A DNA stretch of 64,000 nt, taken from NCBI GenBank assembly GCA_947630965.1, contig CANRJO010000002.1, positions 5,038 through 69,037 of the forward strand, written 5' to 3'. The notes under the pieces are model-generated. The model was not told where the DNA came from. It saw only the letters and a program-made list of their open reading frames with translations, and ran no database searches. A program made the position numbers and the translations under genes. This DNA is from an uncultured Alphaproteobacteria bacterium (lineage in GTDB: Bacteria > Pseudomonadota > Alphaproteobacteria > RF32 > CAG-239). Of the stretch, positions 26,721 to 64,000 are shown in pieces (position 1 is the first letter of the stretch; every line of letters starts with the position of its first letter).

Positions 26721-27476
26721 TTACTCCATTATTAAAAATAAGGAACCATCATCCCGATAAAATGCCGTGCCGTCCGCCGTTGTGACTACAGACAAGCCTT
26801 TGCGCTGAATATGGCAATTTTGTATTTTATCAGCAATCAAGGCCTCATCAGCACCATACAAAGCTCTGTTCTCCGGCGATTCTAGAAGGTACCAACCGTT
26901 TTTGTAAACAAAGCAAAACAACAAATTATCAGCAACTAACGACTCATCTTTCCGATACAAAGCCATACCTTCTTTTGACTTTAATTGATACCAACCGTTC
27001 AAATAAACATCGCAATGCTTGAGTTTATCCGCAACCAAACTTCCGTCTGCGCGGTACAAAGTCGTGCCTTTCTTTGTTTGCAGAAAATACCACCCGTTAT
27101 GAAAAACATGGCAATCTTCCAAATGATCAGCAACCAAAGACTCATCAGCTTGATACAATGCAAAAGATTTATCTGTTTTCAGTTTATACCAACCGTTGTC
27201 AAAAACTTGGCACTTTTTCAGTTTATCGGCAACAAGCGAATCATCGGCGCGATATAATGCGGTTCCGTTTGCCGTTTCTAACGCATACCAACTGTTTGGA
27301 TAAACGTCACAATCTTTTAACTGATTGGCAACCAAGGAGCCGTTTTTGCGGTATAAAGCATTGCCACAAGCCGAGCGCAACATGTACCAACCGTTATCAA
27401 AAATGTACCTGTGTTTCAAACATACGTGGTAAAACTTACGTAAGCGCCACTGAATTTTTTTCAAAATAGTCTTCAT
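26721..27476 (-). CDS. NGWY-repeat protein (about seven 33-aa repeats), member 2
   Basis: MKTILKKIQWRLRKF… followed by about seven tandem 33-residue repeats, each with a single Cys, NGWY, ALYRADxSLVAD. Confidence 0.55.
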   Translation of the reverse strand: MKTILKKIQWRLRKFYHVCLKHRYIFDNGWYMLRSACGNALYRKNGSLVANQLKDCDVYPNSWYALETANGTALYRADDSLVADKLKKCQVFDNGWYKLKTDKSFALYQADESLVADHLEDCHVFHNGWYFLQTKKGTTLYRADGSLVADKLKHCDVYLNGWYQLKSKEGMALYRKDESLVADNLLFCFVYKNGWYLLESPENRALYGADEALIADKIQNCHIQRKGLSVVTTADGTAFYRDDGSLFLIME

Positions 27477-27616
27477 AATTATTATTTTTTAGGATTAAAC
27501 AAAATAATTTTTTTCTAAACAATATATTATCTTATTTTTAGAAAAAATCAATAAAAAAGCGTCTTCGAATAAAAAAACTCCGGATACCGATGTAACCGAA
27601 GTTTTAAGCTTTTGCG

Positions 27617-28177
27617 CTAATAATCTCTTTCTAACAACATGCCGTCAGATCGGTATAAAGCACGACCTTTTTTCGTTCTTACTTCATACTTTCCGTCAGC
27701 GTAAACATCGCACCACTTTAGTTTATTGGCAACAAGCGATTCATCAGCGCGGTATAATGCAATTCCGTTTGCCGTTTCTAATGCATACCAACCGTTGTCA
27801 TAAACATTGCACCAATTCAACTTATCAGCCACAAGCGATTCATCGGCGCGGTATAATGCGGCTCCGTTTGGCGTTCCCAACTCATACCAATTGTTGTCAA
27901 AAAGATTGCACCAGTTCAAATTATCAGCAACAAGCGAATCATCGGCGCGGTATAATGCGGTTCCATTTTTCGTTCCCAACTCATACCAATTGTTAATCCA
28001 AATATAGCAATAAGTCAATTTATCCGCAACCAAACTTCCGTCAGATCGGTATAAAGCCGTTCCGTTTGGCGTTCTTATAAAATACCACCCATTTTCAAAA
28101 ACATACCTGTCCTTTAAAAAATAGTCATGATAAAGCTTGCGCAAATGCTGCTTAATCTTTTTCAAAATAGTTTTCAT
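27617..28177 (-). CDS. NGWY-repeat protein (about five repeats), member 3
   Basis: Start reassigned to the conserved MKTILKKIKQHLRKL. The ORF track begins 8 codons earlier. The upstream leader is conserved with members 1 and 2. Confidence 0.5.
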   Translation of the reverse strand: MKTILKKIKQHLRKLYHDYFLKDRYVFENGWYFIRTPNGTALYRSDGSLVADKLTYCYIWINNWYELGTKNGTALYRADDSLVADNLNWCNLFDNNWYELGTPNGAALYRADESLVADKLNWCNVYDNGWYALETANGIALYRADESLVANKLKWCDVYADGKYEVRTKKGRALYRSDGMLLERDY

Positions 28178-28385
28178 AATTTTTATTTTTTTAATAATCA
28201 TACAAAATAATTTTCTTTCGGGGCGGATGTTAGCATCTTTTTTATGGAAATCAACAAAAAAATCCCAAGCAATACTAAAATGCAGCTCTTGGAATAAAGC
28301 TGTTACGTATTTATTGACTTATTTGGGCATATTTGGTAACATTTGAAAAAGCATTGTTCATATTGGCTTTATAAAATTATTCAGA

Positions 28386-29776: not shown

Positions 29777-30172
29777 TTAGACGCGGCGGCGCTTTCTTAA
29801 GCGACAGCCGTTATGCGGAATAGGTGTAACATCCTTAATAGATGTAATTGTAAACCCAACCACCTGCAAAGCTCTGATTGCCGACTCGCGCCCTGAACCC
29901 GGTCCTTTAACTTCAACTTCCAAAGTTTTCATACCGTTTTCCTGCGCTTTTTTACCGGCTTCCTCTGCGGCAACCTGCGCGGCATAAGGGGTGGACTTAC
30001 GAGAGCCCTTGAAGCCCTGTGCGCCTGCGGTTGACCATGCAACAGTATTGCCCTGTGCATCAGTAATGGTTACGCGGGTGTTGTTAAATGTTGAATTCAC
30101 GTGGGCAACGCCGGAAGTGATATTCTTTTTTTCTTTTTTCTTAACACGTTGTGTTGTAACTGCTTTTGCCAT
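29777..30172 (-). CDS. rpsK: 30S ribosomal protein S11
   Basis: 131 aa with a typical uS11 sequence (…[18 protein letters not shown]…[15 protein letters not shown]…). Confidence 0.95.
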
Positions 30173-30184
30173 TGCTACCTCACC

Positions 30185-30553
30185 TTACTTCTTCTTATTG
30201 GCGACGGTTTTGCGTTTGCCTTTACGGGTACGCGCATTTTGTTTGGTGCTTTGACCGCGAACAGGCAAGCCCTTACGGTGACGCAAGCCGCGATAGCACC
30301 CCAAATCCATCAATCGTTTAATGTTAACGCCAACTTCACGGCGAAGTTCGCCTTCAACTAAATAGTCCTTATCAATAACCTCACGGATTTTGGCGACATC
30401 TTCTTCGCTTAAATCCTGCACGCGCGAATCGGCATTAACGCCAGATTTTGCGCAAATGTCTTGAGCAGTTTTTCTCCCAATGCCAAAGATGTAGGTCAGC
30501 GCGATCTCAATCTTCTTTGCGGTGGGAATGTTTACGCCAGCTATACGAGCCAA
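30185..30553 (-). CDS. rpsM: 30S ribosomal protein S13
   Basis: [26 protein letters not shown]… is the canonical uS13 N-terminus. 122 aa. Confidence 0.95.
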
Positions 30554-30693
30554 ATTGTCTCTCCATCAACAAAAAATTAAAACATTTTATTTAAAAAATT
30601 GATCACCATTTTTCAAAATTAAGCGGATTATATCCAAAAAAAAATAAGAGTCAAGCAAGATTTAACAAAAAATTTATTTTTTTTCAAAAAAGC

Positions 30694-31374
30694 TTACTTT
30701 GCTTCGCTCAATCCAAGGATTCGCGCTATTTTTTGCGCCGTGGCCTCAATGGTGCCTGTGCCGTCCACGCAACTTAAAAGCCCCTCTTTCTCAAAATAAG
30801 GGATTGTCGGATATGTGAGCATGCGATAATTGACCAACCTGTTTTGCACAGTGGCGCGATTATCGTCTTGTCGGCGGGAAAAGCTTGTGCCACCGCAAAC
30901 ATCGCACACGCCGTAAACCTTGGGCTTTAAGAACTTGTCATGATAGCCCTGCCCGCATTGCATGCAGGAATAGCGCCCTAAAATGCGCTCCATGATGATT
31001 TCATCGGGTACCTGAATTTCAATGACGCGATTAAGCTTGATTTTCTTTTCCGCCAACATTTTTTCCAAAACTTCCGCCTGAAAAAGTGTGCGCGGAAAGC
31101 CGTCTAAAATAAAGCCATTGGCGCAATCCTGCGCGTCAATGCGGTTTGAAACCATTTCAATGATCATTTCATCGGTGGCAAACTCGCCCCGATCAAGCGC
31201 GGCTTTCAAGCTTTTACCTAACGGCGTGTCTTTTTGGGCTTCGGCACGCAACATCTCGCCGGTGGAAAGGTGGCAAATGTGCGCACGTTCTTTTAAGATG
31301 CGCGCCTGCGTGCCTTTACCGCACCCTGGTGCACCCGTTAAAACAATATGAAGCCCGGCGCCCTTTTGATCCAT
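30694..31374 (-). CDS. adk: Adenylate kinase with a Cys4 zinc-binding LID
   Basis: P-loop GAPGCGKGTQA. LID with CMQCG…CDVCGG. It sits between secY and rpsM, as in alphaproteobacteria. Confidence 0.9.
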   Translation of the reverse strand: MDQKGAGLHIVLTGAPGCGKGTQARILKERAHICHLSTGEMLRAEAQKDTPLGKSLKAALDRGEFATDEMIIEMVSNRIDAQDCANGFILDGFPRTLFQAEVLEKMLAEKKIKLNRVIEIQVPDEIIMERILGRYSCMQCGQGYHDKFLKPKVYGVCDVCGGTSFSRRQDDNRATVQNRLVNYRMLTYPTIPYFEKEGLLSCVDGTGTIEATAQKIARILGLSEAK

Positions 31375-32753
31375 TACTTTCTTCTCTTGTTTTGCAGAAG
31401 TTGCGCCTTTTTAATAAGCCCTTCGTACTGATACGCAATCAGGTGCGATTGAACCTGCGTCACAAAATCCATGGTGACCTGCACCACGATCAAAAGCGTT
31501 GTACCACCTAAAACAAACGGTACAGAGAGTTTGGAAATCAGGACTTCAGGCACAATGCACAAAACCGTTAAATACGCCGCGCCCAAAACGGTTAAGCGCG
31601 TGATAACGTAATCAAGGTATTCCGCGGTGTTTTTGCCGGGACGAATGCCCGCGATGAAGCCGCCGTGCTTTTTCAAGTTATCCGCCGTTTCCTCGGGGTT
31701 AAATACCACAGCGGTGTAGAAAAACGAGAAAAACACAATCAAAAAGGCGTAAAGCGCCAAATAAACCGGTTGGCCGTGACCGAGCCATTGGCTCAGGCTT
31801 TGCGCCCAAGACGGACCGTTTTGCGCCGAGAGGTTGGCAACTGTTATTGGCAAAAGCAACAACGAGCTTGCAAAAATCGGCGGAATAACGCCTGTGGGGT
31901 TAATTTTGAGCGGCAAGTGCGATGTTTCCGCCGCGCTGATGCGCATGCCCATTTGACGTTTGGGATATTGGATGATGATTTTGCGTTGCGCGCGCTCCAC
32001 AAACACAATCACATAAATGAGCGCTAAAGCCATGACCAAAAGCAAAGCAATGGTTAATAACGACATGGAGCCGACACGCCCTAATTCAAACGTGCGCGCC
32101 AAGGCTGTCGGGATGTTGGCGATAATGCCGACCGTGATGATAAGCGACGAGCCGTTGCCCACACCGCGCGAGGTGATTTGATCGCCCAGCCAAACCACAA
32201 ACATGGTGCCACCGACCAGCGAAACAATGGTTGTAAACTTAAACACAAAGCTCGGGATAACCACCGCCGAAGCGCCGGCGCCGCTTGTCATGCTTTCAAG
32301 ACCAACGGCAATGCCGTAGCCTTGAATAATGGTGATGAACACTGTTAAAATTTTGGTATAATGCGTGACCTTGCGATGCCCCGCCTCGCCTTCTTTCTTC
32401 AAAGCTTGCAAGGACGGGATAATCGATTGCCCGAGTTGGATGATGATGGAGGCGGAAATGTAAGGGAAGATGTTTAAGGCAAAAATGGTCATACGTTCCA
32501 AAGCACCACCGGAAAACATATTAAACATGCCCAAAATGCCGCCGTTGTGCTGTGAAAAAACCTCAGAGAGGATGTTCGGATCAATGCCCGGCAACGGAAT
32601 AAACGTGCCAAGGCGAAACACAACCAACGCCATGATGGTAAACCATAATCTTTTTTTCAGTTCGTCAGCTTTGCTAAAGGCGGACATATCCAAGTTTGCC
32701 GCCATTTTTTCTGCCAATGATGCCATTTTCTTTTCCTTTAAAATTACACACAT
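31374..32753 (-). CDS. secY: Protein translocase subunit SecY
   Basis: 10-TM protein with conserved SecY motifs (…GIMPYISASIIIQL…, …GGTSLLI…). The true start is probably a downstream Met (MASLAEK…). Confidence 0.95.
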   Translation of the reverse strand: MCVILKEKKMASLAEKMAANLDMSAFSKADELKKRLWFTIMALVVFRLGTFIPLPGIDPNILSEVFSQHNGGILGMFNMFSGGALERMTIFALNIFPYISASIIIQLGQSIIPSLQALKKEGEAGHRKVTHYTKILTVFITIIQGYGIAVGLESMTSGAGASAVVIPSFVFKFTTIVSLVGGTMFVVWLGDQITSRGVGNGSSLIITVGIIANIPTALARTFELGRVGSMSLLTIALLLVMALALIYVIVFVERAQRKIIIQYPKRQMGMRISAAETSHLPLKINPTGVIPPIFASSLLLLPITVANLSAQNGPSWAQSLSQWLGHGQPVYLALYAFLIVFFSFFYTAVVFNPEETADNLKKHGGFIAGIRPGKNTAEYLDYVITRLTVLGAAYLTVLCIVPEVLISKLSVPFVLGGTTLLIVVQVTMDFVTQVQSHLIAYQYEGLIKKAQLLQNKRRK

Positions 32754-32848
32754 AAACAGGGCGCTTACAGCCCTTTTGGCATAGTTAATACACCATTTAA
32801 AACAAATTGCAACAAAATAATGCGTTTTGTACAGAAAGAGGCGGAATC

Positions 32849-34054
32849 TTACTTGCTCGTCCAGTTTGGTGAGGAAGGAATATCCGTCAACGTTGTTGTC
32901 GCAGATGCTGTCGGGTGGTATGAAACACCTTTATAAACCAATGTGTCCGTCAAGTTAGAGGCGGTGATTTCTATAGTTTCCGGCCAAAGATCCGAACCAC
33001 CCTCTAACTCCAGAAAAACGGGTTTTTGCGGGGTGCCTGACAATACCAAATTATACTTATATTGCTTTTCATTTGTCATGCGCTCCGTAATATTGAAAGT
33101 AACCCGGCTTCCTTCCTCAATAACATATTCTCCCTTATGATCATAAGCAAAAAGTTTTTCTGCCGTTATGTTCGCCGTTGTTCCCTTAAATCTGAAAGGA
33201 GCTCCGTTAGAAAAAGTGTTTGCTTTCGTAATATTTATTTGCGCATTCTCAAAAGTTAACTCTGAGCCATGAAAAACACTTCCGTTAGGATTTGTGAAAG
33301 AGGCTGTCAAATCGGTGCCCGCAAATTGAACTTTTGAGGATGTGAAAACATTACAATGTATAGAGTTAATATCAAGGTCAATTTTATCTTTTAAAACATA
33401 AGTTGCCTTATTGAACGCCACATTTATTTGATTTTCTGTCACCTTAGAATCATAAATTAAAGAAACATTTTCTAAAGAAATCTCGTTTTCTGTATTAGAA
33501 CTGTTAAGGTAAACATTGTTATTGTGAGTTATGCTGTCTTGATGATGCAGATTAATGTTTTTGAAAGCGGTGTTGTTTTCTGCCGTAATGACTGTTTTAT
33601 TTGCTTGATTCGCGGAAGTTGATAACGTATGTCCGCCACCGTCAATCGTAGTGTTGGCGGCAAGCGTAAAGCCTTGGTTTGTTGGAATTGTGATGTCGCT
33701 TTTCATCGTGATGAGCTTGCATTTTCCTGAACCGGCGAGGTATTTAAGTTCGTCGTAGTTGGTCGCGATACAAGCTTTTTGACAAAGTGTTAAATTTTCA
33801 TTGCCCCTACATTTAATGATGTCAGCGCACCACGATGTTTTGTCCGATTCTGTAAAGCCAAGCTTGGTGCAATCGTAATTGACGCATCTTTTATAGGACT
33901 TATCAAAAGGGCAATACATATACCCGTTATCCGCACAGTTCGGGTCATTATCTTTGGAATAACCCAAGCTCGCGCAATCTGGCACTTTCTCACAATCCAT
34001 GGCATTTGCCACATTCGCAAACATCAAAGCCAACAAAAACAAAATATAGCGCAT
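32849..34054 (-). CDS. Secreted cysteine-rich protein with an N-terminal Cys module and a beta-helix-like Asn/Thr-rich C-terminal region (paralog of 62623-63846)
   Basis: Start reassigned to MRYILFLLALMFANVANA (signal peptide). An 8-Cys module DCEKVPDCASLGYS…NCADNGYMYCPFD…C..YDC. Then TIDGGGHTL and N-rich repeats. Confidence 0.5.
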   Translation of the reverse strand: MRYILFLLALMFANVANAMDCEKVPDCASLGYSKDNDPNCADNGYMYCPFDKSYKRCVNYDCTKLGFTESDKTSWCADIIKCRGNENLTLCQKACIATNYDELKYLAGSGKCKLITMKSDITIPTNQGFTLAANTTIDGGGHTLSTSANQANKTVITAENNTAFKNINLHHQDSITHNNNVYLNSSNTENEISLENVSLIYDSKVTENQINVAFNKATYVLKDKIDLDINSIHCNVFTSSKVQFAGTDLTASFTNPNGSVFHGSELTFENAQINITKANTFSNGAPFRFKGTTANITAEKLFAYDHKGEYVIEEGSRVTFNITERMTNEKQYKYNLVLSGTPQKPVFLELEGGSDLWPETIEITASNLTDTLVYKGVSYHPTASATTTLTDIPSSPNWTSK

Positions 34055-34083
34055 TTTCTTCTCCTTATTCGAATCGATCAAAA

Positions 34084-34175
34084 AAAGGGTACCTTTAAAT
34101 GCAACGCGTTAACCAACGCAAAATTGCGGGTTTTAGAGCTTGACAAGCCCATTTTTTTAGGGTACCTTTTTTTGC
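34084..34175. promoter_or_regulatory. ~92-bp element bounded by GGTACC-centred palindromic boxes (AAAGGTACCTTTAAA) around an embedded TTGACAAG, upstream of the Cys-rich gene
   Basis: Near-identical full copies at 62364-62458 and 63906-64000. Isolated boxes at 34265-34283, 34348-34367 and 37640-37660. Confidence 0.5.
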
Positions 34176-34596
34176 TTTTAGCGATCTTTACAATCAAGGA
34201 AAAATTAAAATGTTTTGAAAACTCGATGTTCATTCGAGCTATTAACTTTTTGAAATATAACGAAAAAAGGTACCTTAAAAAAGTGCCTTTGTCAATAATA
34301 AAAAATCAAGTAAATTCAATGTTTCGTGGTTTTTAAAAGTATAGCAATTTTAAGGTACCCTTTTTTTGATATATTCGAATCGAGAGGGGGAAATTTTTTT
34401 CTAAACAAGGAAAATGGACTATTTTGGGCTTTAAGCAACGCAAATTCGGGAATATGCCGTATTTTGCACCCCCTCAATGCTAAAAGCCCAAAGCCTCTTT
34501 TAAAAAAAGACGTTTGTCTTTGGAGTAAAGATTTTAAAAAATCGCTCAGAAATTAGACAAATGGTCGTTTTTTAAGAGGTTAAAGGAAGGGTAAGG

Positions 34597-37317
34597 ATGC
34601 GTAAAGTAGCGGCAATTATTTTTTTGGGCCTCATCAGCTTAAGCACTTCTGTGTATGGCGCATGTTTTAACGAGTGCAAAGCCGTGCCGGAATGTGCCAA
34701 AATGGGGTATAAATTACAAGGGGATATTTTCTGCCCTGATGGTTACATTACGTGTCCGTTCGATTCCCAATATATTTGGTGTAAAGAATATACCTGTAAA
34801 GATGGACGTTATAGTGATACGGAAGAGCTAACGGGCGAGAAAGGTTACGTTTGCGATGAGGTAGATTATCATCATCGGAAGTGTTATCATTGCCATTGTG
34901 ATCCTGACCCCGAAGAGTGTCAATGGAGTAATCTCAACAAAGGCGTTGGCGAGTTAGGCGATAGATGTTGTGACGGGCACTATGCCAGTTGTAGAAATTT
35001 ATGCCAAGACAAGGTCAGCGTGCCGGCTCACGCGCATGGTAATAAAGAGTCTTGCACGGGGTGCAATATTACAAAAGATATTATCACAAGTTGGTCATGT
35101 GATGACTGGTATGATCAAATGGGCGAAGCCTGTTATGCCCGCCAATGCCCCGATGGTTATACCATAACAGATGCTCGTATTGAGGATTGTGGACGCACAA
35201 AAGATCAAGGTTGGACATGGGAGAGCAAAGGTCAAAGCGGCGAGCAGATTTGCGGCAAATGCACCGCAAAGAGTTGTTCAGGCGATTACAGCACAGATTA
35301 CCCAGGCGTGGATAGTTGTGGCGATAGCGGCTCCAAGGGGTGGACTTGGAACCAAAGCGGTTGGAGTGGCGATGACGCCTGCGGCAAATGTACGGCAAAA
35401 GAGTGTTTACCAGGTTTTAGCACACAATATTCAAGTATAGCGAGTTGTGGCACAAGTGGCAACAAGGGTTGGACATGGGAGCAATCAGATCAATATGCGG
35501 GTAATGACATTTGCGGGAAATGCACCAAGAAAGAATGTGAAGAAGGTGACACTGACCCCGATATCAAGAGTTGCAAGTTTGAAAGCGATTATTTAGGAAG
35601 CAAGACTGAAAACGGATATTATAGCGAAGATAAAAAGTGTTACACTTGCCATTGTGCGGCGAATGATACGAACTGTCATTGGAGTGAGGGAAACAAAGGT
35701 CAGGGCAGATTGGAAACAAAATGTTGCAATGGTAAATATGCTACCTGCACATCAAATTGCGTTAAAGTTGAAGTGCCGGATCATGGTCAATGTGCTGATC
35801 GTTGCACAGGCTGTGAAACGGAAGTTTGTTCAGCATATAGTTGCGATAAAGGTTATCAAAAGGATAATTCACAGACAAAATGCGAAGTGGCGCCTTGTGC
35901 CAATGGTACGGCAACGGAAGCGAGCAAATGCGGGAATGGAACCGGTGCTGCAAATGGTTGGGAAACGAGCACTGACACAGGTCATTTAAGTGGTGAGAAG
36001 AAGTGTTATCAATGTACCATGAAAGATTGTCCGACAGGTGAGAGCACCGATTATCAAGATGTCAGCAAGTGTGGCACAGGTGCTTCTAAGGGAGCCGGGT
36101 GGACGAATAAGGGCACAACAAATTATCATGGCGACACAAGATGTTACAGTTGCAGTAAGAAAGCATGCACGGGTGGTTACGATACAAAATATAAAGATGT
36201 CAACAGCTGCGGCAAAGCGGGCGACAGTGGTTGGGACTGGAGCACAAACGGTTGGAGCGGTGATGAAGTGTGTGGTAAATGCACGCCTAAAACATGCCCG
36301 AATGGATACAGCAGCGAAAAGAAGAGTATTGATGATTGCGGCACCACAAAAGATAAAGGTTGGACATTTGAAAAATCTTCCACCAATTCCGGAGAGAATG
36401 TTTGCGGTAAGTGTGATGCTCGCCAGTGCCCAACTGATGAGAACACAAATGCTTCAGCATCAGATTGTGGCACAAGCGGTGAAAACGGTTGGACAAAGAA
36501 AACAACGGGGCATTTTGCGGGAGATAATGCTTGCTATAAGTGCGAGAAAAAGGTATGTGAAGGAGGTTCTAGCACCAAGTACCAAAGCATAAGTGACTGC
36601 TCGGCGGGGTGTGCAACTTACCACTCTGAGGGTTATTCAGGTGATCAAAAGTGTGGCGTTTGCTATTATACCGTTGATGAGCAGGTTCCTGAGAATGCAA
36701 CATGTACGTACACAACCAAATGCGAGAGAGGCACAGCCTGTACGAAATGGGATTGTAACGAGGGCTATACAAAATCAGCAGATGGCAAGAAATGTGATGT
36801 TGCCAAATGTCCGGAGGGATACGACGTACAGAAACAATCAGGCCCTGATTGCGGTAATGAAAGTGGTTGGCGTGTGGAAACTCTGGGCAAGAGCGGCAAT
36901 AAAAATTGCGGTAAATGCATTTGTGAGTCTAGTTGCACCTGGGACAATAACAATAAAGGCGAAAAAGGATCCTTAACTAATAAATGTTGCAATGGTAAAT
37001 ATGCCAATTGCACCAATAACTGCCCGAATGTTCAGGTGCCTCCGAACGCTTATGGAACAAACCCTTGCACGGCTTGCAATCAAGCGGTCAGATACGGCGG
37101 TTGGGAATGTAATGAAGGTTTCTTGAAATTAGACGGCGCATGCGTTGAGCAATGCAAAGACCCGCAAGTGGACTATGAAACTTGTTGGAATGGAAGTTTC
37201 GCCTCAGGCGGCGGTTTGTCTGACTGCGATAAGCAAGGCTATAAACACTCCAAAGGGGATTGCACTAACTTTATTGCTTGTCCGACGAATGCTAATAAAA
37301 TCCGTTGCTTACATTAG
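34597..37317 (+). CDS. Large secreted cysteine-rich modular repeat protein (906 aa)
   Basis: Signal peptide MRKVAAIIFLGLISLSTSVYGA. An N-terminal Cys module related to the 32849 and 37758 genes. About ten ~40-aa repeats of the form DCG.SG.KGWTWE..G.SG…CGKCT.K.C. Three ~50-aa modules of the form C.C..…W…NKG.G.L…CCNGKYA.C..NC..V.VP. GGA RBS upstream. Confidence 0.55.
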   Translation: MRKVAAIIFLGLISLSTSVYGACFNECKAVPECAKMGYKLQGDIFCPDGYITCPFDSQYIWCKEYTCKDGRYSDTEELTGEKGYVCDEVDYHHRKCYHCHCDPDPEECQWSNLNKGVGELGDRCCDGHYASCRNLCQDKVSVPAHAHGNKESCTGCNITKDIITSWSCDDWYDQMGEACYARQCPDGYTITDARIEDCGRTKDQGWTWESKGQSGEQICGKCTAKSCSGDYSTDYPGVDSCGDSGSKGWTWNQSGWSGDDACGKCTAKECLPGFSTQYSSIASCGTSGNKGWTWEQSDQYAGNDICGKCTKKECEEGDTDPDIKSCKFESDYLGSKTENGYYSEDKKCYTCHCAANDTNCHWSEGNKGQGRLETKCCNGKYATCTSNCVKVEVPDHGQCADRCTGCETEVCSAYSCDKGYQKDNSQTKCEVAPCANGTATEASKCGNGTGAANGWETSTDTGHLSGEKKCYQCTMKDCPTGESTDYQDVSKCGTGASKGAGWTNKGTTNYHGDTRCYSCSKKACTGGYDTKYKDVNSCGKAGDSGWDWSTNGWSGDEVCGKCTPKTCPNGYSSEKKSIDDCGTTKDKGWTFEKSSTNSGENVCGKCDARQCPTDENTNASASDCGTSGENGWTKKTTGHFAGDNACYKCEKKVCEGGSSTKYQSISDCSAGCATYHSEGYSGDQKCGVCYYTVDEQVPENATCTYTTKCERGTACTKWDCNEGYTKSADGKKCDVAKCPEGYDVQKQSGPDCGNESGWRVETLGKSGNKNCGKCICESSCTWDNNNKGEKGSLTNKCCNGKYANCTNNCPNVQVPPNAYGTNPCTACNQAVRYGGWECNEGFLKLDGACVEQCKDPQVDYETCWNGSFASGGGLSDCDKQGYKHSKGDCTNFIACPTNANKIRCLH

Positions 37318-37339
37318 AGCGCAAGTGCAATATATTAAA

Positions 37340-37374
37340 GACCGCCCCGAAAGTTCGGGACGGTCTTTTTCTTG
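37340..37374 (+). terminator. Rho-independent terminator after the 906-aa gene
   Basis: gaccgccccgaaagttcgggacggtc hairpin followed by tttttcttg. Confidence 0.6.
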
Positions 37375-37757
37375 AAAATAACCTTAAGCGTTTACAATCA
37401 GGCACTTTTTACAATTAATAGCTTTCGCTACACCGGCAAACAATGAAACAACAAAAACAAAATATATTTCTTTCCATTCCTTGCGTCTGCCTGCTGATGT
37501 TATTCTGAGGCGAAACTGAAGAATCTAGGTGGAAAATATAGCTCATTTGTTGTCCTGGACTCTTTGCCTATGGCTCAGAGTGACGGTTTGGAGTGTGTTT
37601 TACTCCTTTCCCGATGTTCGAGGTTGGCGAATCGATCAAAAAAAGGGTACCTTTAAATTGCTATATCAGAGCAACAAAAAACGTCCATTTTGAAATGGAC
37701 GTTTTTGTTAAGAACGATATTTTTTTCTAGCTTCTTATTCTTGCGGTTGCTTTCCGA

Positions 37758-38090
37758 TTAAAGGCATTTATAAAAGCCACCGCAAGTGTCACGGCTAGCG
37801 CGGAGCCCTGCCTTCACACAATCCTCTTTAGAAAAGGCATAATCCTCCGAGCAGCAACTTTTATAATACCATCTGTGATAAGGGCAAGGGTTTGTTAACC
37901 GATAACCTGCCTGGCATTTTGTTAGAGTATAACCTTCTGCCCGGCATTTTTCTTCCGGTTGTTTTTGTGAGGAACCAGTGCTCGTGTTACCCGAGCTCTC
38001 GCCCGGCAAAAACATCACTCCGGCATGAGCCGAAAACGCAAATGAGCCTAAAAAGAGCAATGTTAAGATTGTTAATTTCGTTTTGACCAT
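37758..38090 (-). CDS. Small secreted cysteine-rich protein (110 aa) related to the N-terminal Cys module family
   Basis: Signal peptide MVKTKLTILTLLFLGSFAFSAHA. KCRAEGYTLTKCQAGYRLTNPCPYHRWYYKSCC… resembles the GY…C.DGY..CPFD module. Confidence 0.4.
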   Translation of the reverse strand: MVKTKLTILTLLFLGSFAFSAHAGVMFLPGESSGNTSTGSSQKQPEEKCRAEGYTLTKCQAGYRLTNPCPYHRWYYKSCCSEDYAFSKEDCVKAGLRASRDTCGGFYKCL

Positions 38091-51065: not shown

Positions 51066-54000
51066 CTAGAACTTGTATTTGGCTGAGAGAATGCCGCTAT
51101 GATCTTCGAAATCTTTGCGGAACTTGCCTTCATAGCCGGCGGAAATATCCCAACTTTCGTTCAAGGAAGCTGTTAAGCCAACACCGGCTTCAACGCCAAA
51201 GCGTTCTAAGCTCTCGCCTTCAACCCGGTAGGAGCTGCTACCGACATTGACAACGGCGCTGTTATCGCCATCCATCAAGTCGTAGGTCACGCCCAAGCGT
51301 GCTTCAGGACGGAGGCTGATGCCGTTGTCAAACGCCACTTCTTTGGACGCTTTCACATCGGCAACCGCGGTCAAGATGTCTTGATCTTCGGCTTTCACAC
51401 GCTGACCTGCCGTGTCTGTGTAGGCTTCCTGATCAAGGTGTGCATAACGCAAACCAATTTCAGGTGTCACGTTCACGCTGCCTGCCAAGGCTTCATAGCC
51501 TGTCATAGCTTGCAAGCCGAAGACATCAACGTCATACTTGCCGCTGAAACCGCCTAACAAGCTGCTCTTCTTTTCTTTGTACTTAGACATACCATAAGAA
51601 GCAATGCCGTTGACATACCAGTTGCTCGGCTTATATTCGCCATAAAGCATAAAGGTGTGCGAATCGACATCAATATCGCGGTGATGACCGTCAATTTCCG
51701 TATCGCCATAAGCATAAGCAACACCGAGTTTCACGTTATCTGCCACTTCATGATGTGCACCAAAAGCAACGCCTTTTGTCTTGGCATCAAAACCTTTTGC
51801 CTCAGACATATCGTCAACGGTGGACTTGTTAAACAAAGCTTTCACCCAAACAACAGCCTTGTCAAACACGCCGTCGCCCGAAGATTTTCCGGCGGAAGCT
51901 GTGTCAATGCTGTTGGTGCTCAAGTTTGCGCTTACAGCGCCATAGGCGTGAGCCAATTGGTTGGTTTCAACTGTTTGAACGACAGGTGCGAAAGCCGGCG
52001 CCACGTCTTCAGCAAGTGCGGCAACGGTGTTTACATCGTGCTTTTGCAGATGTTCATACATGAAATCATGAATCTCTTTGGCTTTGCCATCCAGATTTTT
52101 CTCTAAGGCGAAAGCGCTCATCGCATTGGAAGCGTTTTCACCCGCACCGGCTTCTTGAGCTTTGGAAGCAATTCTTTCCGCCGAGTTCTTTGAGGCAACG
52201 ACTTGATTGCCTTCAACATTCAAATCATAAAGAACGTTTTCAGCGTGAAGTTTGCTCTTCTCGCCTTTCAAGAGTTCGTCTGTTACGACCTTGCCAAAGT
52301 TAAGCGCTTGGCCATCAATGACGTCACCGGCTTCTTCAGTAACATAAAAGTCAAGTGTGGCATTGCCATTTACGGTTAAATTGGCATAATCATCTTCATC
52401 GGATCTGATTTTACCGTTCACAAGAATGTCATTGTCAGCTTTTTCAACATCAACATGTAAGACGGAGCCATCCTTTAACGTTACGGCGCTGTCATATGTA
52501 CTTGTGCCTAGGTCAAGTGTGCCTGCAACGGCTGTTTTGGCAATGTCGTAATATGCGTCATCCACATGGAGCGTGGCATCCTTTTGGATTACAACTTTAT
52601 TGGCCGTGAATAGTTTTGTATTGTCTAGTGTGAACTCATGGCCGCCTGTGACAGTCATTCTCTTAAGCTCTGCTTTGCCACCAAAGAGACTGCCTGATGA
52701 GGTGTCGGCATTGATGTTTAAGTCTTTCAACAACCCACCTTCTGCAGTTTCCTGAATGGATTTAATTTTAGCTTCGGCTGAGTTGACGTTGATTGTGCCG
52801 ACATTTTCACCACCTATGATGCCGTCAATCTCGCCTTCAAGGTTTATAACAGCATCTTCATCATCCAATGTGAACGTTGATTTATTGATCGATTTCATCA
52901 CGCCGCCTTTTTTGACATTAATGGTGGCATTTTCAATGAACATATTGCCTTTATCATTCTTAGCTGTTCCGTCGCCTAAGGCGCCTTGTAGAAGCATACC
53001 GCCATCATCAATGGTAACCTCGGCACCATCGATTGTGTTTTCATCATCATAACCTGCAATATAGGCTTTGTTGCCATCGGCATCAGTGCCACCAATGTAA
53101 ACTTTAGTACGAATGATGCCTTTATCATCCGTATCGCCGTCAATCGTAAAATCAACGGCATCAATATTGGCGCCGTTCTTGACGGAAATGGTGTCGAGAT
53201 CATTTAGGAGAATTGTACCGCTTTCAACAGAGGCATCGTTATTATCATGTGTGTGAACGGCCACAATTCTTGCGCCATTTTCCAAGCTTATATTGCCACC
53301 ATCAACAGTAATGGTAAAATCTTCATCTCCTTTTGCTCTCTCAGTACTCTCTGTATGTGTGTCTCGACCTAACCAGCCACCATCAGAGTGATAATTTATG
53401 TTTTTCAATTCTAAATTATAAGAAGCAACCACTTTACCTTTATTTTCAATATTGGCGCCGTTCCCTTGACCTGTAATAATGAGGGGAGCAAGGCCCACAT
53501 ATTTTTGATCATCCGTGGTATTTGTCCCGTTACCGCCGTAAATCAGGTGGTCACCTTCTTCAAAGGTCAACGTTTTGTTTTCTGAAATATCTAAATAATG
53601 AGCAGTACCGTTTTTGGGTTTATTATTATACAAATAAATGTTGGTGCCATCTGCCATTTCGACATTGCCGACTGTCAGAGGCTTTCCTTTCTCTTCATTA
53701 TTTGGGTTTGAATTTTGACCAATAATAAGCTCACCTTCCGTAATGCCGGAAGTGCCTTTTTCAATCCGGAGATCAATGCCGCTTAAGTCAACACCTTTAA
53801 GGTCTTTCCACTTTTCTACGCCGGATTTAATACCGTCAACGGTTAAATAACCTTGCACGGTCATTTTATGTCCGCCTGTTAATTTTGAGCCATCATGAAC
53901 TGTAACCCAATGCCCTAACGTGACATCGTTTTCTACCTTAACGTCTTCACCGTTAATGTTAATGCGCGCACTTGAACTGTCGTGACTTGTTACATCACTT

Positions 54001-54110
54001 TCAACAATCAATGATGTGTAGTCATTCTTTGCAGCTTCTTCTGCTTGCGCATTTGAAACCGCAAAGGCGACACTCACGAGCGCTGTTGTTAATAAAAGAT
54101 TATTCTTCAT
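51066..54110 (-). CDS. Autotransporter (type Va) outer-membrane protein with a beta-helical passenger
   Basis: Signal peptide MKNNLLLTTALVSVAFAVSNAQA. A long Gly/Asn/Asp-rich passenger with repetitive beta-strand motifs. A C-terminal ~280-aa beta-barrel ending …LSAKYKF. Confidence 0.75.
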   Translation of the reverse strand: MKNNLLLTTALVSVAFAVSNAQAEEAAKNDYTSLIVESDVTSHDSSSARININGEDVKVENDVTLGHWVTVHDGSKLTGGHKMTVQGYLTVDGIKSGVEKWKDLKGVDLSGIDLRIEKGTSGITEGELIIGQNSNPNNEEKGKPLTVGNVEMADGTNIYLYNNKPKNGTAHYLDISENKTLTFEEGDHLIYGGNGTNTTDDQKYVGLAPLIITGQGNGANIENKGKVVASYNLELKNINYHSDGGWLGRDTHTESTERAKGDEDFTITVDGGNISLENGARIVAVHTHDNNDASVESGTILLNDLDTISVKNGANIDAVDFTIDGDTDDKGIIRTKVYIGGTDADGNKAYIAGYDDENTIDGAEVTIDDGGMLLQGALGDGTAKNDKGNMFIENATINVKKGGVMKSINKSTFTLDDEDAVINLEGEIDGIIGGENVGTINVNSAEAKIKSIQETAEGGLLKDLNINADTSSGSLFGGKAELKRMTVTGGHEFTLDNTKLFTANKVVIQKDATLHVDDAYYDIAKTAVAGTLDLGTSTYDSAVTLKDGSVLHVDVEKADNDILVNGKIRSDEDDYANLTVNGNATLDFYVTEEAGDVIDGQALNFGKVVTDELLKGEKSKLHAENVLYDLNVEGNQVVASKNSAERIASKAQEAGAGENASNAMSAFALEKNLDGKAKEIHDFMYEHLQKHDVNTVAALAEDVAPAFAPVVQTVETNQLAHAYGAVSANLSTNSIDTASAGKSSGDGVFDKAVVWVKALFNKSTVDDMSEAKGFDAKTKGVAFGAHHEVADNVKLGVAYAYGDTEIDGHHRDIDVDSHTFMLYGEYKPSNWYVNGIASYGMSKYKEKKSSLLGGFSGKYDVDVFGLQAMTGYEALAGSVNVTPEIGLRYAHLDQEAYTDTAGQRVKAEDQDILTAVADVKASKEVAFDNGISLRPEARLGVTYDLMDGDNSAVVNVGSSSYRVEGESLERFGVEAGVGLTASLNESWDISAGYEGKFRKDFEDHSGILSAKYKF

Positions 54111-62215: not shown

Positions 62216-62363
62216 CTTTCACGTTTTTGTGAAAGCCTTTATTTTATCCATAAAGTAAATTTTTCCCTAATCTATCCCTAATTTTGTGGAGCTGATACCT
62301 GTTCTATGGTAATTTTATTATAAAAACCGCCTGTATGAATATGGGCGTTTTTTTAATGGTGCA

Positions 62364-62458
62364 ATTTAAAGGTACCTTAAAAATTTGGGGTTGTCAAGCT
62401 CTAAAACCCGCAGTTTCGCGTTGGTTAATCTGTTGCATTTAAAGGTACCTTTAAATTG
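62364..62458. promoter_or_regulatory. GGTACC-box element (two palindromic boxes flanking TTGTCAAGCTCTAAAACCCGCAG) upstream of the second Cys-rich gene
   Basis: atttaaaggtaccttaaaaatttggggttgtcaagctctaaaacccgcagtttcgcgttggttaatctgttgcatttaaaggtacctttaaattg. Same orientation relative to its gene as the 34084-34175 copy. Confidence 0.5.
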
Positions 62459-62490
62459 ATGCGTCAGGAAAGGAGTGAAACACACTCCAT

Positions 62491-62601
62491 ACGTCACTCT
62501 GAGCCATAGGCGAAGAGTCCAGGACAACAAATTAGCTATATTTTCTCCTGGATCCTTCGCGAATGCCCTTCAGGCAAAGCTCAGGATGACGGACGGAGAG
62601 G
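62491..62601. repeat. Type F plus type D small palindromic elements, immediately upstream of the Cys-rich gene
   Basis: acgtcactctgagccataggcgaagagtccaggacaac (F) followed by cctggatccttcgcgaatgcccttcaggcaaagctcaggatgacggacggagagg (D variant with an internal insertion). Confidence 0.7.
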
Positions 62602-62622
62602 AACGAAAAAGAGGAGTATAAA

Positions 62623-63846
62623 ATGCAATATGTGTTGATTTTGTTGGGTGTGATGTTTGCGAATGTGGCAAATGCGATGGATTGTGAGAAGGTGCCTGAT
62701 TGTGAAAGCTTGGGTTATTCCACCAAAGATGACCCAAATTGTGCGAATGATGGCTATATGTACTGTCCGTTTGATCAGGATTATAAGGTGTGCGTGCAGT
62801 ACAATTGCGCTGCCTTAGGTTTTACGGAATCGGACAAAACGTCTTGGTGTGCAGACCTCATCAAATGCAAGGGCAACGAAAAAATGACACTTTGTCAAAA
62901 ACCATGTTTTGCAACCAATTATACTAGCCTGAAAGAACTTGCGGAATCGGGAGATTGTAAAGTCACAACTGTGCAGGGCGATATCACTATCCCCGAAAAC
63001 CAAAGTGTCACTCTTGCAGAAAACACTGTCATCGATGGCGGAGGTCATACACTTTATACATCGGGAAATCAAAAAGACTTAACCGTTTTTTCCATGGGTA
63101 ACAACACAGGTTTGAAAAACCTTAAACTAAAACATACACAAAAAGAGACGCAAGATGGTTATTCTCTCTTGTTCTCTTTAGCTCCCGACGATGTCATTTC
63201 TCTTGAAAACGTGGATATTACTGTTAATTCAGACAATGTGGAAGATGTGCGCGCGCCTGTTATTGGCAATGGTATTTATAATATCCATGGAAAATTTGCA
63301 CTTACTCTAGACTCAAGGATTCGACTTATCGCTTTCCAATTTAATACCATGAATTTCACGGATGCACAGGTTTCCATTATTACTCAGGGAACGGAAACTG
63401 GTAACGCTGATATGGCGGAGGGTTCAACGTTAACGTTTACAAACTCTACAGTGGAGGTGAGTGTTGATGGCTCCACTTTTACAAAAAACGGAACTGCAAC
63501 CTTTATAAACAGTCAAGCAAACATTAGCGCAGCTGCTCTTTTCTTTGGAGATACAACAGAGAATCATGAAATCTTCTTAGATAAATCTAGCCTTACAAGC
63601 AAGACGACTTATCGTATCAGCAACCACATTCAAAAAAGCATTACCCTCAAGGGAACAGGCGAACAGCCCTCTATTTTAGAAATGACATATAATAAGCCGG
63701 ATACGGATGTTCCGACCAATATTGTGGCGACAAACACAACGGATAAAGTGATTCTTAACGGTATTACCTATCGTCCGAAACAGGCAGGAATGACTAAACT
63801 TTCGGAAATAGGTAGCTCGAAAAACTGGGAAAAGGTTTTACAATAA
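62623..63846 (+). CDS. Secreted cysteine-rich/beta-helix-like protein (paralog of 32849-34054)
   Basis: Signal peptide MQYVLILLGVMFANVANA. Cys module DCEKVPDCESLGYS…NCANDGYMYCPFD… about 70% identical to its paralog over the first 150 aa, then divergent. AAGAGGAG RBS upstream. Confidence 0.55.
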   Translation: MQYVLILLGVMFANVANAMDCEKVPDCESLGYSTKDDPNCANDGYMYCPFDQDYKVCVQYNCAALGFTESDKTSWCADLIKCKGNEKMTLCQKPCFATNYTSLKELAESGDCKVTTVQGDITIPENQSVTLAENTVIDGGGHTLYTSGNQKDLTVFSMGNNTGLKNLKLKHTQKETQDGYSLLFSLAPDDVISLENVDITVNSDNVEDVRAPVIGNGIYNIHGKFALTLDSRIRLIAFQFNTMNFTDAQVSIITQGTETGNADMAEGSTLTFTNSTVEVSVDGSTFTKNGTATFINSQANISAAALFFGDTTENHEIFLDKSSLTSKTTYRISNHIQKSITLKGTGEQPSILEMTYNKPDTDVPTNIVATNTTDKVILNGITYRPKQAGMTKLSEIGSSKNWEKVLQ

Positions 63847-63905
63847 GCATTTTTCTCTTTATCTACATCTAACGCCGCATTACTGCGGCGTTTTTTAATG
63901 GTGCA

Positions 63906-64000
63906 ATTTAAAGGTACCTTAAAAAAATGGGGTTGTCAAGCTCTAAAACCCGCAGTTTTGCGTTGGTTAATCCGTTGCATTTTAAGGTACCTTTAAATTG
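63906..64000. promoter_or_regulatory. Third full copy of the GGTACC-box element, downstream of the Cys-rich gene at the window edge
   Basis: atttaaaggtaccttaaaaaaatggggttgtcaagctctaaaacccgcagttttgcgttggttaatccgttgcattttaaggtacctttaaattg, same orientation as 62364-62458. Confidence 0.5.

Follow-up and report, generated by a model that had tools for sequence, protein, structure and literature searches.

Cysteine-rich secreted proteins and their N-terminal module

We analyzed a stretch of 64,000 nucleotides (the window) from contig CANRJO010000002.1 of an uncultured Alphaproteobacteria bacterium (GenBank assembly GCA_947630965.1). Four genes in the window, which we call A to D, had been predicted to encode secreted cysteine-rich proteins that share a module near the N-terminus. 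All four open reading frames (ORFs) are present. The genes and their N-terminal parts are listed here, with positions in the window and in the protein (amino acids, aa):

32849..34054, minus strand: gene A; 401 aa with 12 Cys; the signal peptide is followed by the two-unit Cys module and a right-handed beta-helix
34001..34054, minus strand: signal peptide of A (aa 1-18, MRYILFLLALMFANVANA), with a hydrophobic core and an ANA cleavage motif, as read from the sequence
33767..34000, minus strand: Cys module of A (aa 19-96)
32852..33766, minus strand: neck and beta-helix body of A (aa 97-401)
34597..37317, plus strand: gene B; 906 aa, of which 98 are Cys; the signal peptide is followed by unit 1 of the module and then by a mosaic of repeats of types X and Y
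34663..34797, plus strand: N-terminal module unit of B (aa 23-67)
37758..38090, minus strand: gene C; 110 aa with 8 Cys; predicted small secreted protein
37764..37946, minus strand: region of C that aligns to the module (aa 49-109) by hhalign with shuffle controls
62623..63846, plus strand: gene D; 407 aa with 11 Cys; architecture as in A
62677..62910, plus strand: module of D (aa 19-96)

A protein with a sequence identical to that of A is present in the database (P0001).

As had been proposed, each of the four proteins appears to begin with a Sec-type signal peptide. Judging from the sequences, positively charged residues at the start of each protein precede a hydrophobic core and an AXA-like site, and cleavage would occur at VANA/MDC in A and D, SVYG/AC in B, and SAHA/GV in C. 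The signal peptide of A is conserved in an alignment of 30 homologs. We also considered whether these might be bacterial lipoproteins, and dropped this idea because none of the four has a lipobox ([LVI][ASTVI][GAS]C) at the cleavage site; in A and D, the cysteine is at position +3.

The module was originally described as having about 60 residues. It is real, but alignments of 30 A-type proteins and of 35 modules show that it has about 78 residues and consists of two related units with four Cys each. Unit 1 is DC-x-[SE]-L-G-Y-S-x6-C-x3-G-Y-x2-C-P-F-D-x2-Y-K-x-C, and unit 2 is C-x2-L-G-F-T-x-S-D-K-[ST]-x-W-C-x5-C-x7-C. In A, unit 1 contains C27, C40, C48, and C57, with C21 just ahead of it, and unit 2 contains C62, C76, C82, and C91, with C95 after it. 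An HMM (hidden Markov model) for a single unit, whose alignment includes A itself, matches the module of A twice (E = 2.7e-19 and 1e-11). The conserved motifs are rich in aromatic residues: GY, GY, PFD, YK, GFT, and DK.SW. The spacing of the cysteines is also conserved, as originally claimed: 11 Cys are invariant across the 30 A-type proteins. Unit 2 has four of them, five are in unit 1 or directly ahead of it, and the others are C95 and C112. Because this number is odd, one Cys may be free or may be bonded to another molecule.

We defined members of the family by a Sec signal peptide that is followed directly by unit 1 in the form C-x3-G-[YF]-x(4-8)-C-x(5-8)-C-P-[FYL]-[DN]-x(5-7)-C, which is the arrangement in A, D, and B. 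The corresponding pattern for unit 2 is C-x2-[LM]-G-F-T-x2-D-K-x2-W-C-x5-C-x7-C. It is present in A and D. At the N-terminus of B it is missing: the HMM match stops at model position 51, and B begins with unit 1 only.

A and D are paralogs over their full length (45% identity, E = 6e-116 by BLASTP), while the similarity of A and D to B is confined to about 53 N-terminal residues (36–38% identity, E ~ 1e-10). An independent HMM that was built from A-type and DUF1566-type modules only, without any B-type sequence, matches aa 26-74 of B at E = 3.2e-10, and it also matches the N-termini of seven relatives of B. In a six-frame scan of the whole window, the module was found in A, B, and D only.

The original prediction included C as a stand-alone copy of the module. 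BLASTP found no match between C and A, B, or D, and two HMMs scored C no higher than shuffled sequences. In profile-profile alignments with hhalign, residues 46-79 of C align to unit 1 (P = 2e-4 to 6e-4), and all four Cys, CP[FY], and the two GY motifs line up. The score was 21.0, versus 9.9 ± 2.3 for column-shuffled controls (maximum 17.9; 0 of 150 reached 21.0). With a wider profile of both units, the alignment covers 46 collinear columns and extends into unit 2, where it covers just the first three Cys; this scored 19.5, versus 10.8 ± 2.7 for shuffled controls (maximum 18.8; 0 of 200 reached it). Overall, hhalign gives P = 2e-4 to 3e-3 and a probability of 11–47% for C. Relative to the unit 1 pattern, loop 1 of C is shorter and loop 2 is longer. 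We found just four homologs of C. Thus, the relationship that was claimed for all four genes is found for A, B, and D by both BLASTP and the independent HMM, while for C it is suggested by weak profile-profile similarity: C is probably a diverged, stand-alone relative of the module.

The original prediction did not recognize the module as a described domain, and our searches agree. Searches of all four proteins against Pfam, NCBIfam, and PHROGs gave only noise, with matches far below the cut-offs (Nodulin_late, E = 0.11; DUF4369, E = 0.028; FliY, E = 0.031), and a profile search of the sequences in the PDB (Protein Data Bank) with the module gave nothing better than E = 1. It had also been suggested that clustering could show whether the module is restricted to a lineage. 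Among 1.84 billion cluster representatives, the two-unit profile matched 231 proteins at E ≤ 1e-3, of which 133 reached E ≤ 1e-10. The module starts at residues 19-45, directly behind the signal peptide, in almost all of the best 150 matches, and these 150 proteins range from 62 to 2519 aa. The module is a rare N-terminal disulfide-rich domain that was not previously described.

Proteins and repeats attached to the module

The module is attached to a variety of C-terminal parts, or bodies. In about 48 relatives of A, the first ~95 residues are shared at 65–75% identity and are followed by a DUF1566/Lcl_C-like domain, although most of these domains score below the Pfam cut-off for Lcl_C (29.9 versus 34.9 bits). 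In the four proteins from the window, Lcl_C (PF07603) has no match at E ≤ 1. We also asked if the window might encode another member of this type; our own HMM of DUF1566-like bodies found none, so this candidate was dropped. We used our own body HMMs to sort 134 further representatives with the module:

A-type beta-helix: 12 of 134
DUF1566-like: 23 of 134
Y repeats, as in B: 10 of 134
Other: 89 of 134, with 4–12% Cys (mostly 7–12%) and resembling repeat proteins

Among the relatives, Pfam also identified single cases of a phage tail collar domain (E = 9e-22) and of a Pectate_lyase_5 "adhesive domain". The units of the module are arranged in other ways in a few proteins: unit 2 occurs five times in tandem ahead of a beta-helix in P0125, unit 1 is at an internal position in P0088 and P0095, and P0143, P0174, and P0207 are stand-alone module proteins of 95–115 aa.

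Many members can be present in one genome. In a collection of species-representative genomes, we found one related genome, a metagenome-assembled genome from rabbit gut that is labeled "uncultured Alphaproteobacteria bacterium". Its SecY is 93.7% identical to SecY from the window. It encodes 13 A-type paralogs, and at least 19 ORFs with the module lie within the ~150 kb of loci that we fetched, often in pairs.

A and D were originally described as beta-helix-like, and this is borne out by the structural model of A from AlphaFold2 (AF2). The mean pLDDT (predicted local distance difference test score) is 83.6, and across most of residues 100-401, which form a right-handed parallel beta-helix, it is above 90. 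The bodies of A and D are thus confidently modeled as beta-helices. Foldseek comparisons of the model of A to the PDB returned beta-helix proteins only, and these matches were weak (E ≥ 4e-3; TM-scores of 0.30–0.36 for the leading matches; probability up to 0.99). The SRRP (serine-rich repeat protein) adhesin of L. reuteri (5NY0/5NXK) ranked first, followed by a fucoidan lyase, the epimerase AlgE4, and polygalacturonases; Ag43 ranked lower and had a lower TM-score. A and D have the same fold as these beta-helix adhesins and enzymes (SRRP, Ag43, pectate lyase, and polygalacturonase), but the likeness is at the level of the fold only, with 7–14% identity and no match in Pfam. Also, A and D have no autotransporter barrel or serine-rich repeat, and the N-terminal Cys module is absent from those families.

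Within the body, the only invariant positions across the 30 homologs are T135, D138, G139, N166, F244, and W398. The invariant positions of the A-type proteins are confined to the module, the first rungs (IDGGGH), and the C-terminal cap (LVLNGVTYHP...NW), and the central rungs are hypervariable. None of the catalytic residues of pectate lyases or of glycoside hydrolase family 28 are conserved on the helix in these 30 homologs, and no enzyme model from Pfam matches. With hypervariable central rungs and invariant positions at the ends only, the body is more likely to be a binding or variable surface than an enzyme.

These results bear on the idea that the module is a small lectin-like domain that binds carbohydrates and tethers the proteins to the cell's own lipopolysaccharide or capsule, to host mucin, or to dietary polysaccharide, with A and D acting on polysaccharides. 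Such a module would be comparable in principle to the disulfide-rich modules of hevein or of the peritrophins, and could itself be the anchoring mechanism. It has six conserved aromatic residues, along with conserved Gly, Ser, and Asp, in 78 disulfide-rich residues; the fold matches of A include the fucoidan lyase, AlgE4, and the polygalacturonases; and DUF1566, which is one of the partner domains, has been proposed to have a role in carbohydrate recognition (PMC11162425). However, the Pfam models for carbohydrate-binding modules, hevein, and peritrophin match nothing even at E ≤ 1, the module has no match among PDB sequences, the central rungs lack the invariant residues of a catalytic site, and the Foldseek scores are weak. 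We consider a lectin-like module to be distinctly doubtful.

Gene B encodes a mosaic of Cys repeats, as originally described, and we divided it into three X units and ten Y repeats of 43 aa:

34882..35145, plus strand: X unit 1 of B (aa 96-183), CYHCHC...CC.G.YA.C...C..V.VP...C.GC
35146..35535, plus strand: Y repeats 1-3 (aa 184-313; HMM E = 1e-15 to 1e-16)
35638..35895 and 36916..37152, plus strand: further copies of the X unit (from Cys spacing; DNA repeat families D2 and D8)
35896..36666, plus strand: Y repeats 4-9 (aa 434-690; HMM domains)
36808..36927, plus strand: Y repeat 10 (aa 738-777; HMM E = 1.5e-11)
37219..37314, plus strand: tentative unit-like motif at the C-terminus of B (aa 875-906, CDKQGYKHSKGDCTNFIACPTNANKIRC; regular expression match)

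The X units have the pattern CYxCxC...CCxGxYAxC...VP...CxGC, and the consensus of the Y repeat is CPTGYSTDYQSVSDCGTKGSNGWTYSSSGYSGDTACGKCTAKT. The C-terminal motif was matched at E = 0.22 by the independent HMM and at 3.8e-6 by the unit HMM, which was trained on B's sequence.

AF2 modeled the Y repeats at pLDDT 97. We found no similar structure in the PDB by Foldseek and no match in a profile search of PDB sequences. The best Foldseek matches were TNFR-family (tumor necrosis factor receptor) proteins, namely DR5 and GITR, and were not significant. Like the cysteine-rich domains of TNF receptors, the CXXC repeats of the variant-specific surface proteins (VSPs) of Giardia, and EGF-like (epidermal growth factor-like) repeats, B consists of tandem repeats of about 40 aa that are elongated and stapled by disulfides, and its Y repeat has a C-G-K-C motif. 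But B has no Pfam match to EGF, TNFR, or VSP-type repeats, and no significant structural similarity to them. We also considered homology between the module unit and the Y repeat, and dropped it because hhalign aligned just 4 columns.

In three relatives of B (P0085, P0087, and P0092), Y repeats form the passenger of an autotransporter, which supports an extracellular location for the repeat. B has the Y repeat in common with these type Va autotransporters, but it has no barrel, and the N-terminal module takes its place. The PF03797 beta-barrel was found by Pfam in P0085 and not in A, B, C, or D. Conversely, the three relatives with the barrel lack the module, while ten relatives have the module and no barrel (P0081, P0082, P0084, P0086, P0088-P0091, P0093, and P0094).

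Selection, exchange of 5' ends, and possible roles of the module

In a contig that encodes a protein identical to D (L014), D is followed by a tandem paralog of 399 aa (positions 4808-6007 of L014). The window thus cuts a tandem pair, and a fifth member of 399 aa very probably lies just past the end of the window. We compared A to D, and D to this neighbor, by their proportions of nonsynonymous (pN) and synonymous (pS) differences:

A versus D, module: pN 0.14, pS 0.70
A versus D, body: pN 0.50, pS 0.68
D versus its tandem neighbor, signal peptide: pN 0, pS 0
D versus its tandem neighbor, module: pN 0.02, pS 0.14
D versus its tandem neighbor, neck and body: pN 0.30–0.33, pS 0.56–0.73

Between A and D, pS is saturated in the module and pN is low, which implies strong purifying selection on the module. 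We dropped recent gene conversion as the cause of this conservation because of the saturated pS (0.70). Between D and its neighbor, pS is just 0–0.14 at the 5' end and the body has diverged, so this 5' end has been homogenized by conversion.

More distant comparisons show that the module and the body can have separate histories:

A versus P0004: module 55% identical, body 80% identical
P0004 versus P0012: module 78% identical, body 29% identical
P0012 versus P0028: module 100% identical, body 35% identical

Within the rabbit-gut genome, the mean identity of the modules is 70.6%, versus 55.5% to the modules of A and D. Because the modules are more similar within a genome than between genomes, the 5' cassette undergoes concerted evolution within genomes and diverges rapidly between close relatives. 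Overall, these comparisons show that duplication and recombination both diversify the family, with recombination swapping or homogenizing the 5' cassette, which comprises the leader, the signal peptide, and the module. This mosaic pattern cleanly illustrates concerted evolution among paralogs: orthologous bodies are 80% identical, modules just 55%, and SecY proteins 94%.

Could the module be just a structural cap or spacer? It might amount to the two leading copies of a stalk repeat that is stapled by disulfides, have no binding partner of its own, and be conserved by the demands of folding and by gene conversion. The tandem copies of unit 2 in P0125, the internal copies of unit 1 in P0088 and P0095, and the unit-like motif at the end of B all fit this explanation. 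So do the 89 Cys-rich, repeat-like bodies among the 134 further module proteins, as well as the demonstrable homogenization of 5' ends between tandem paralogs. On the other hand, a mere cap does not account well for a module that is almost invariably right behind the signal peptide, that also exists as stand-alone proteins of 95–115 aa, and that is conserved far above any downstream repeat; and the saturated pS and low pN between A and D indicate selection rather than recent conversion. We view a cap as somewhat unlikely.

Another explanation is that the module is a new N-terminal sorting or anchoring domain that marks dozens of cargoes per genome, unrelated apart from the module, for a single machinery of surface display or attachment in a clade of uncultured gut Alphaproteobacteria, and that the Y repeat is a new disulfide-rich fold. 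The module would then have the role that is played elsewhere by the C-terminal domain of the type IX secretion system, by LPXTG, or by PEP-CTERM. If the module were co-evolving with a dedicated machinery, this would explain both its homogenization within genomes and its rapid divergence between relatives. We think that this combination is unlikely.

The window also contains a remnant of another member of the family:

37362..37466, minus strand: decayed 5' stub of a further member, located between gene C and the terminator of B and interrupted by stop codons and frameshifts

The stub covers the signal peptide and the start of the module. In blastn, 108 nt align to the 5' part of the coding region of A with 74% identity. 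The stub is also detected by tblastn (E = 7e-7), and it is preceded by a 31-nt copy of the leader of A. A conserved N-terminus, variable C-termini, many paralogs, recombination at the junction, and a nearby 5' stub are all reminiscent of polymorphic toxins or bacteriocin-like effectors such as CDI (contact-dependent inhibition) proteins, Rhs, or MafB, in which an N-terminal delivery domain is joined to variable killing domains. But the stub retains the conserved 5' end, whereas in toxin systems the orphan cassettes represent the 3' end. Also, we found no toxin family in the proteins of the window or in the 137 relatives that we scanned, and no small immunity-like gene downstream; the next gene is secY for A and another paralog for D. 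The C-terminal parts are beta-helices, lectin-like folds, and repeat rods, which are typical of binding modules. A family of toxins is therefore highly improbable.

The interpretation that we lean toward, at slightly less than an even chance, is that A, B, D, and probably a degenerate C are members of a lineage-restricted family of modular, disulfide-bonded, Sec-exported proteins of uncultured gut-associated Alphaproteobacteria, with the module as a common handle and the bodies as variable binders. The module would give every member one common interaction. This would most likely be attachment to a shared partner in the cell envelope (a protein or a glycan), or else recognition by a shared step of export or assembly. 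The variable C-terminal parts would bind different ligands.

Several observations point to a common handle. The module is joined to different bodies at 65–75% identity and is nearly always behind the signal peptide. Its partners are of the binding or adhesin type (Lcl_C, phage Collar, Pectate_lyase_5, beta-helices, and the autotransporter relatives), and the A-type bodies have no conserved catalytic site. The stand-alone module proteins, the complementary occurrence of module and barrel among the relatives of B, the expansion of paralogs, the purifying selection, the recombination at the 5' end, and the precedent of Lcl also fit. The role in host interaction or at the cell surface that was originally suggested is plausible given these partner domains.

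In Legionella, Lcl has a DUF1566 head, and its N-terminal region was proposed to be a surface anchor (PMC11162425). The module family has a layout that parallels that of Lcl, with Sec export, an N-terminal region that would serve in attachment, a stalk, and a C-terminal head. The parts differ, however: Lcl has an amphipathic helix as its anchor and a collagen-like stalk, while this family has a disulfide-rich module of two units and stalks of Cys repeats.

The Msp2/P44 proteins of Anaplasma are encoded by a multigene family of surface proteins with conserved ends and variable cores, and gene conversion occurs among them. Like Msp2/P44, the module family has many paralogs, conserved N- and C-terminal ends around a hypervariable middle, exchange of segments, and truncated copies. 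But there is no homology, and Msp2/P44 are outer-membrane beta-barrels. Also, every copy that we saw has its own start codon and leader, and there is no evidence of a single expression site or of programmed switching.

Some results weigh against a common handle. We identified neither a secretion system nor a partner gene for the module in the window. The five copies of unit 2 in P0125 and the internal copies of unit 1 in P0088 and P0095 would fit a plain structural repeat equally well. Gene conversion alone could suffice for the similarity of modules within a genome, with no functional partner needed. The complementarity between module and barrel among the relatives of B involves just ten and three proteins. 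Also, the AF2 model of the module of A is moderate to poor, with pLDDT of 64–78 for unit 1 and below 50 for unit 2.

Secreted adhesin-like proteins that are modular and paralogous are a familiar kind of system. Here, two domain families are new, namely the module and the Y repeat, and a shared N-terminal handle that is based on Cys and is subject to concerted evolution is an unusual variant. If the module is indeed a common handle, then it defines which proteins make up the secreted and surface repertoire in a little-known group of Alphaproteobacteria from the gut, a single profile would suffice to list those proteins in metagenomes, and the module would be an N-terminal, disulfide-based counterpart of known sorting tags. 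Whatever its function, the Y repeat, with its confident model and no solved relative, merits a curated family model and an experimental structure.

Repeat elements and neighboring genes

A repeat of ~97–110 nt, with inverted ends of 21 nt centered on AAGGTACCTT and with TTGTCAAGC in its central part, is found in the window solely beside A, B, and D. The palindrome centered on AAGGTACCTT has 9 pattern matches in the window, versus 0.21 expected. The copies and parts of this element are:

34065..34184, minus strand: repeat element that directly precedes A and ends in GGTACC palindromes; the right arm is within the 5' leader of A
34263..34394, no strand assigned: two further palindrome half-sites, in the intergenic region between the divergent genes A and B
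37628..37665, no strand assigned: element arm; has a 31-nt exact match to A (positions -16 to -46); inverted partner of 34340-34377 (repeat families D4 and I2)
62349..62458, plus strand: element copy upstream of D
63891..64000, plus strand: second element copy at D, on its downstream side; the two copies that flank D are 95% identical

The last of these probably precedes the next paralog, beyond the window. In the rabbit-gut genome, a comparable element lies 240–290 nt upstream of five paralogs (L003, L004, L006, L007, and L010). It has GGTACC and CGTACG palindromes that are about 75 bp apart, with TTGTCAAGC at the center. Rfam identified two tRNAs in the window and no other RNA family, including at the repeat element. 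This element may be a cassette with an operator or promoter that is specific to the family, or it may be a small mobile element.

A second class of short hairpin repeats, TGTCCTGGACTCTTCGC...GCTCAGAGTGACGG and its reverse complement, is found in the 5' leaders of the family (at 62460-62620 and 37540-37600 in the window, and upstream of the genes in L006 and L010). Elsewhere, upstream repeats have been miscalled as N-terminal extensions of the proteins, as in P0011, P0031, and P0041.

The window is a stretch of alphaproteobacterial chromosome that includes genes for MipZ, MreB, MreC, PBP2, RodA, and FtsK, as well as rpoA. Gene A lies 95 bp upstream of secY-adk-rpsM-rpsK and on the same strand. 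Within secY-adk-rpsM-rpsK-rpoA (29777-34054 with A, minus strand), the usual rplO and rpmD are not ahead of secY, and gene A is there instead. In the rabbit-gut genome, a different paralog is about 2.8 kb from secY and in the opposite orientation (L004). The neighborhood of secY may be a recurrent site for members of this family. Gene D lies 0.8 kb downstream of the genes for tRNA-His and tRNA-Ala.

A, B, and C were originally said to sit together, which is correct as to their positions, but C is there by synteny with ftsK and not as part of one cluster. C is 58 bp behind ftsK, and this order is the same in every contig that we recovered. In a more distant genome, ftsK and C are followed by prfA and hisS, and neither A nor B is nearby. 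Because C is linked to ftsK even without A and B, its adjacency to them is no evidence for a single island. For the same reason, we dropped the idea that C was part of an insertion along with A and B.

The window also contains an unrelated autotransporter (51066-54110, minus strand; 1013 aa; PF03797 at E = 9e-47), whose passenger has neither Y repeats nor the module; the genome thus possesses a type V secretion route. Finally, the stretch with the lowest GC content in the window (38%) is at 26721-28201 on the minus strand, downstream of rpoA. It has two ORFs of 250 and 193 aa, with no match in Pfam, and the opposite strand has repeated ORF fragments that resemble MRFRLPFLTHTNC, which suggests an internal DNA repeat.

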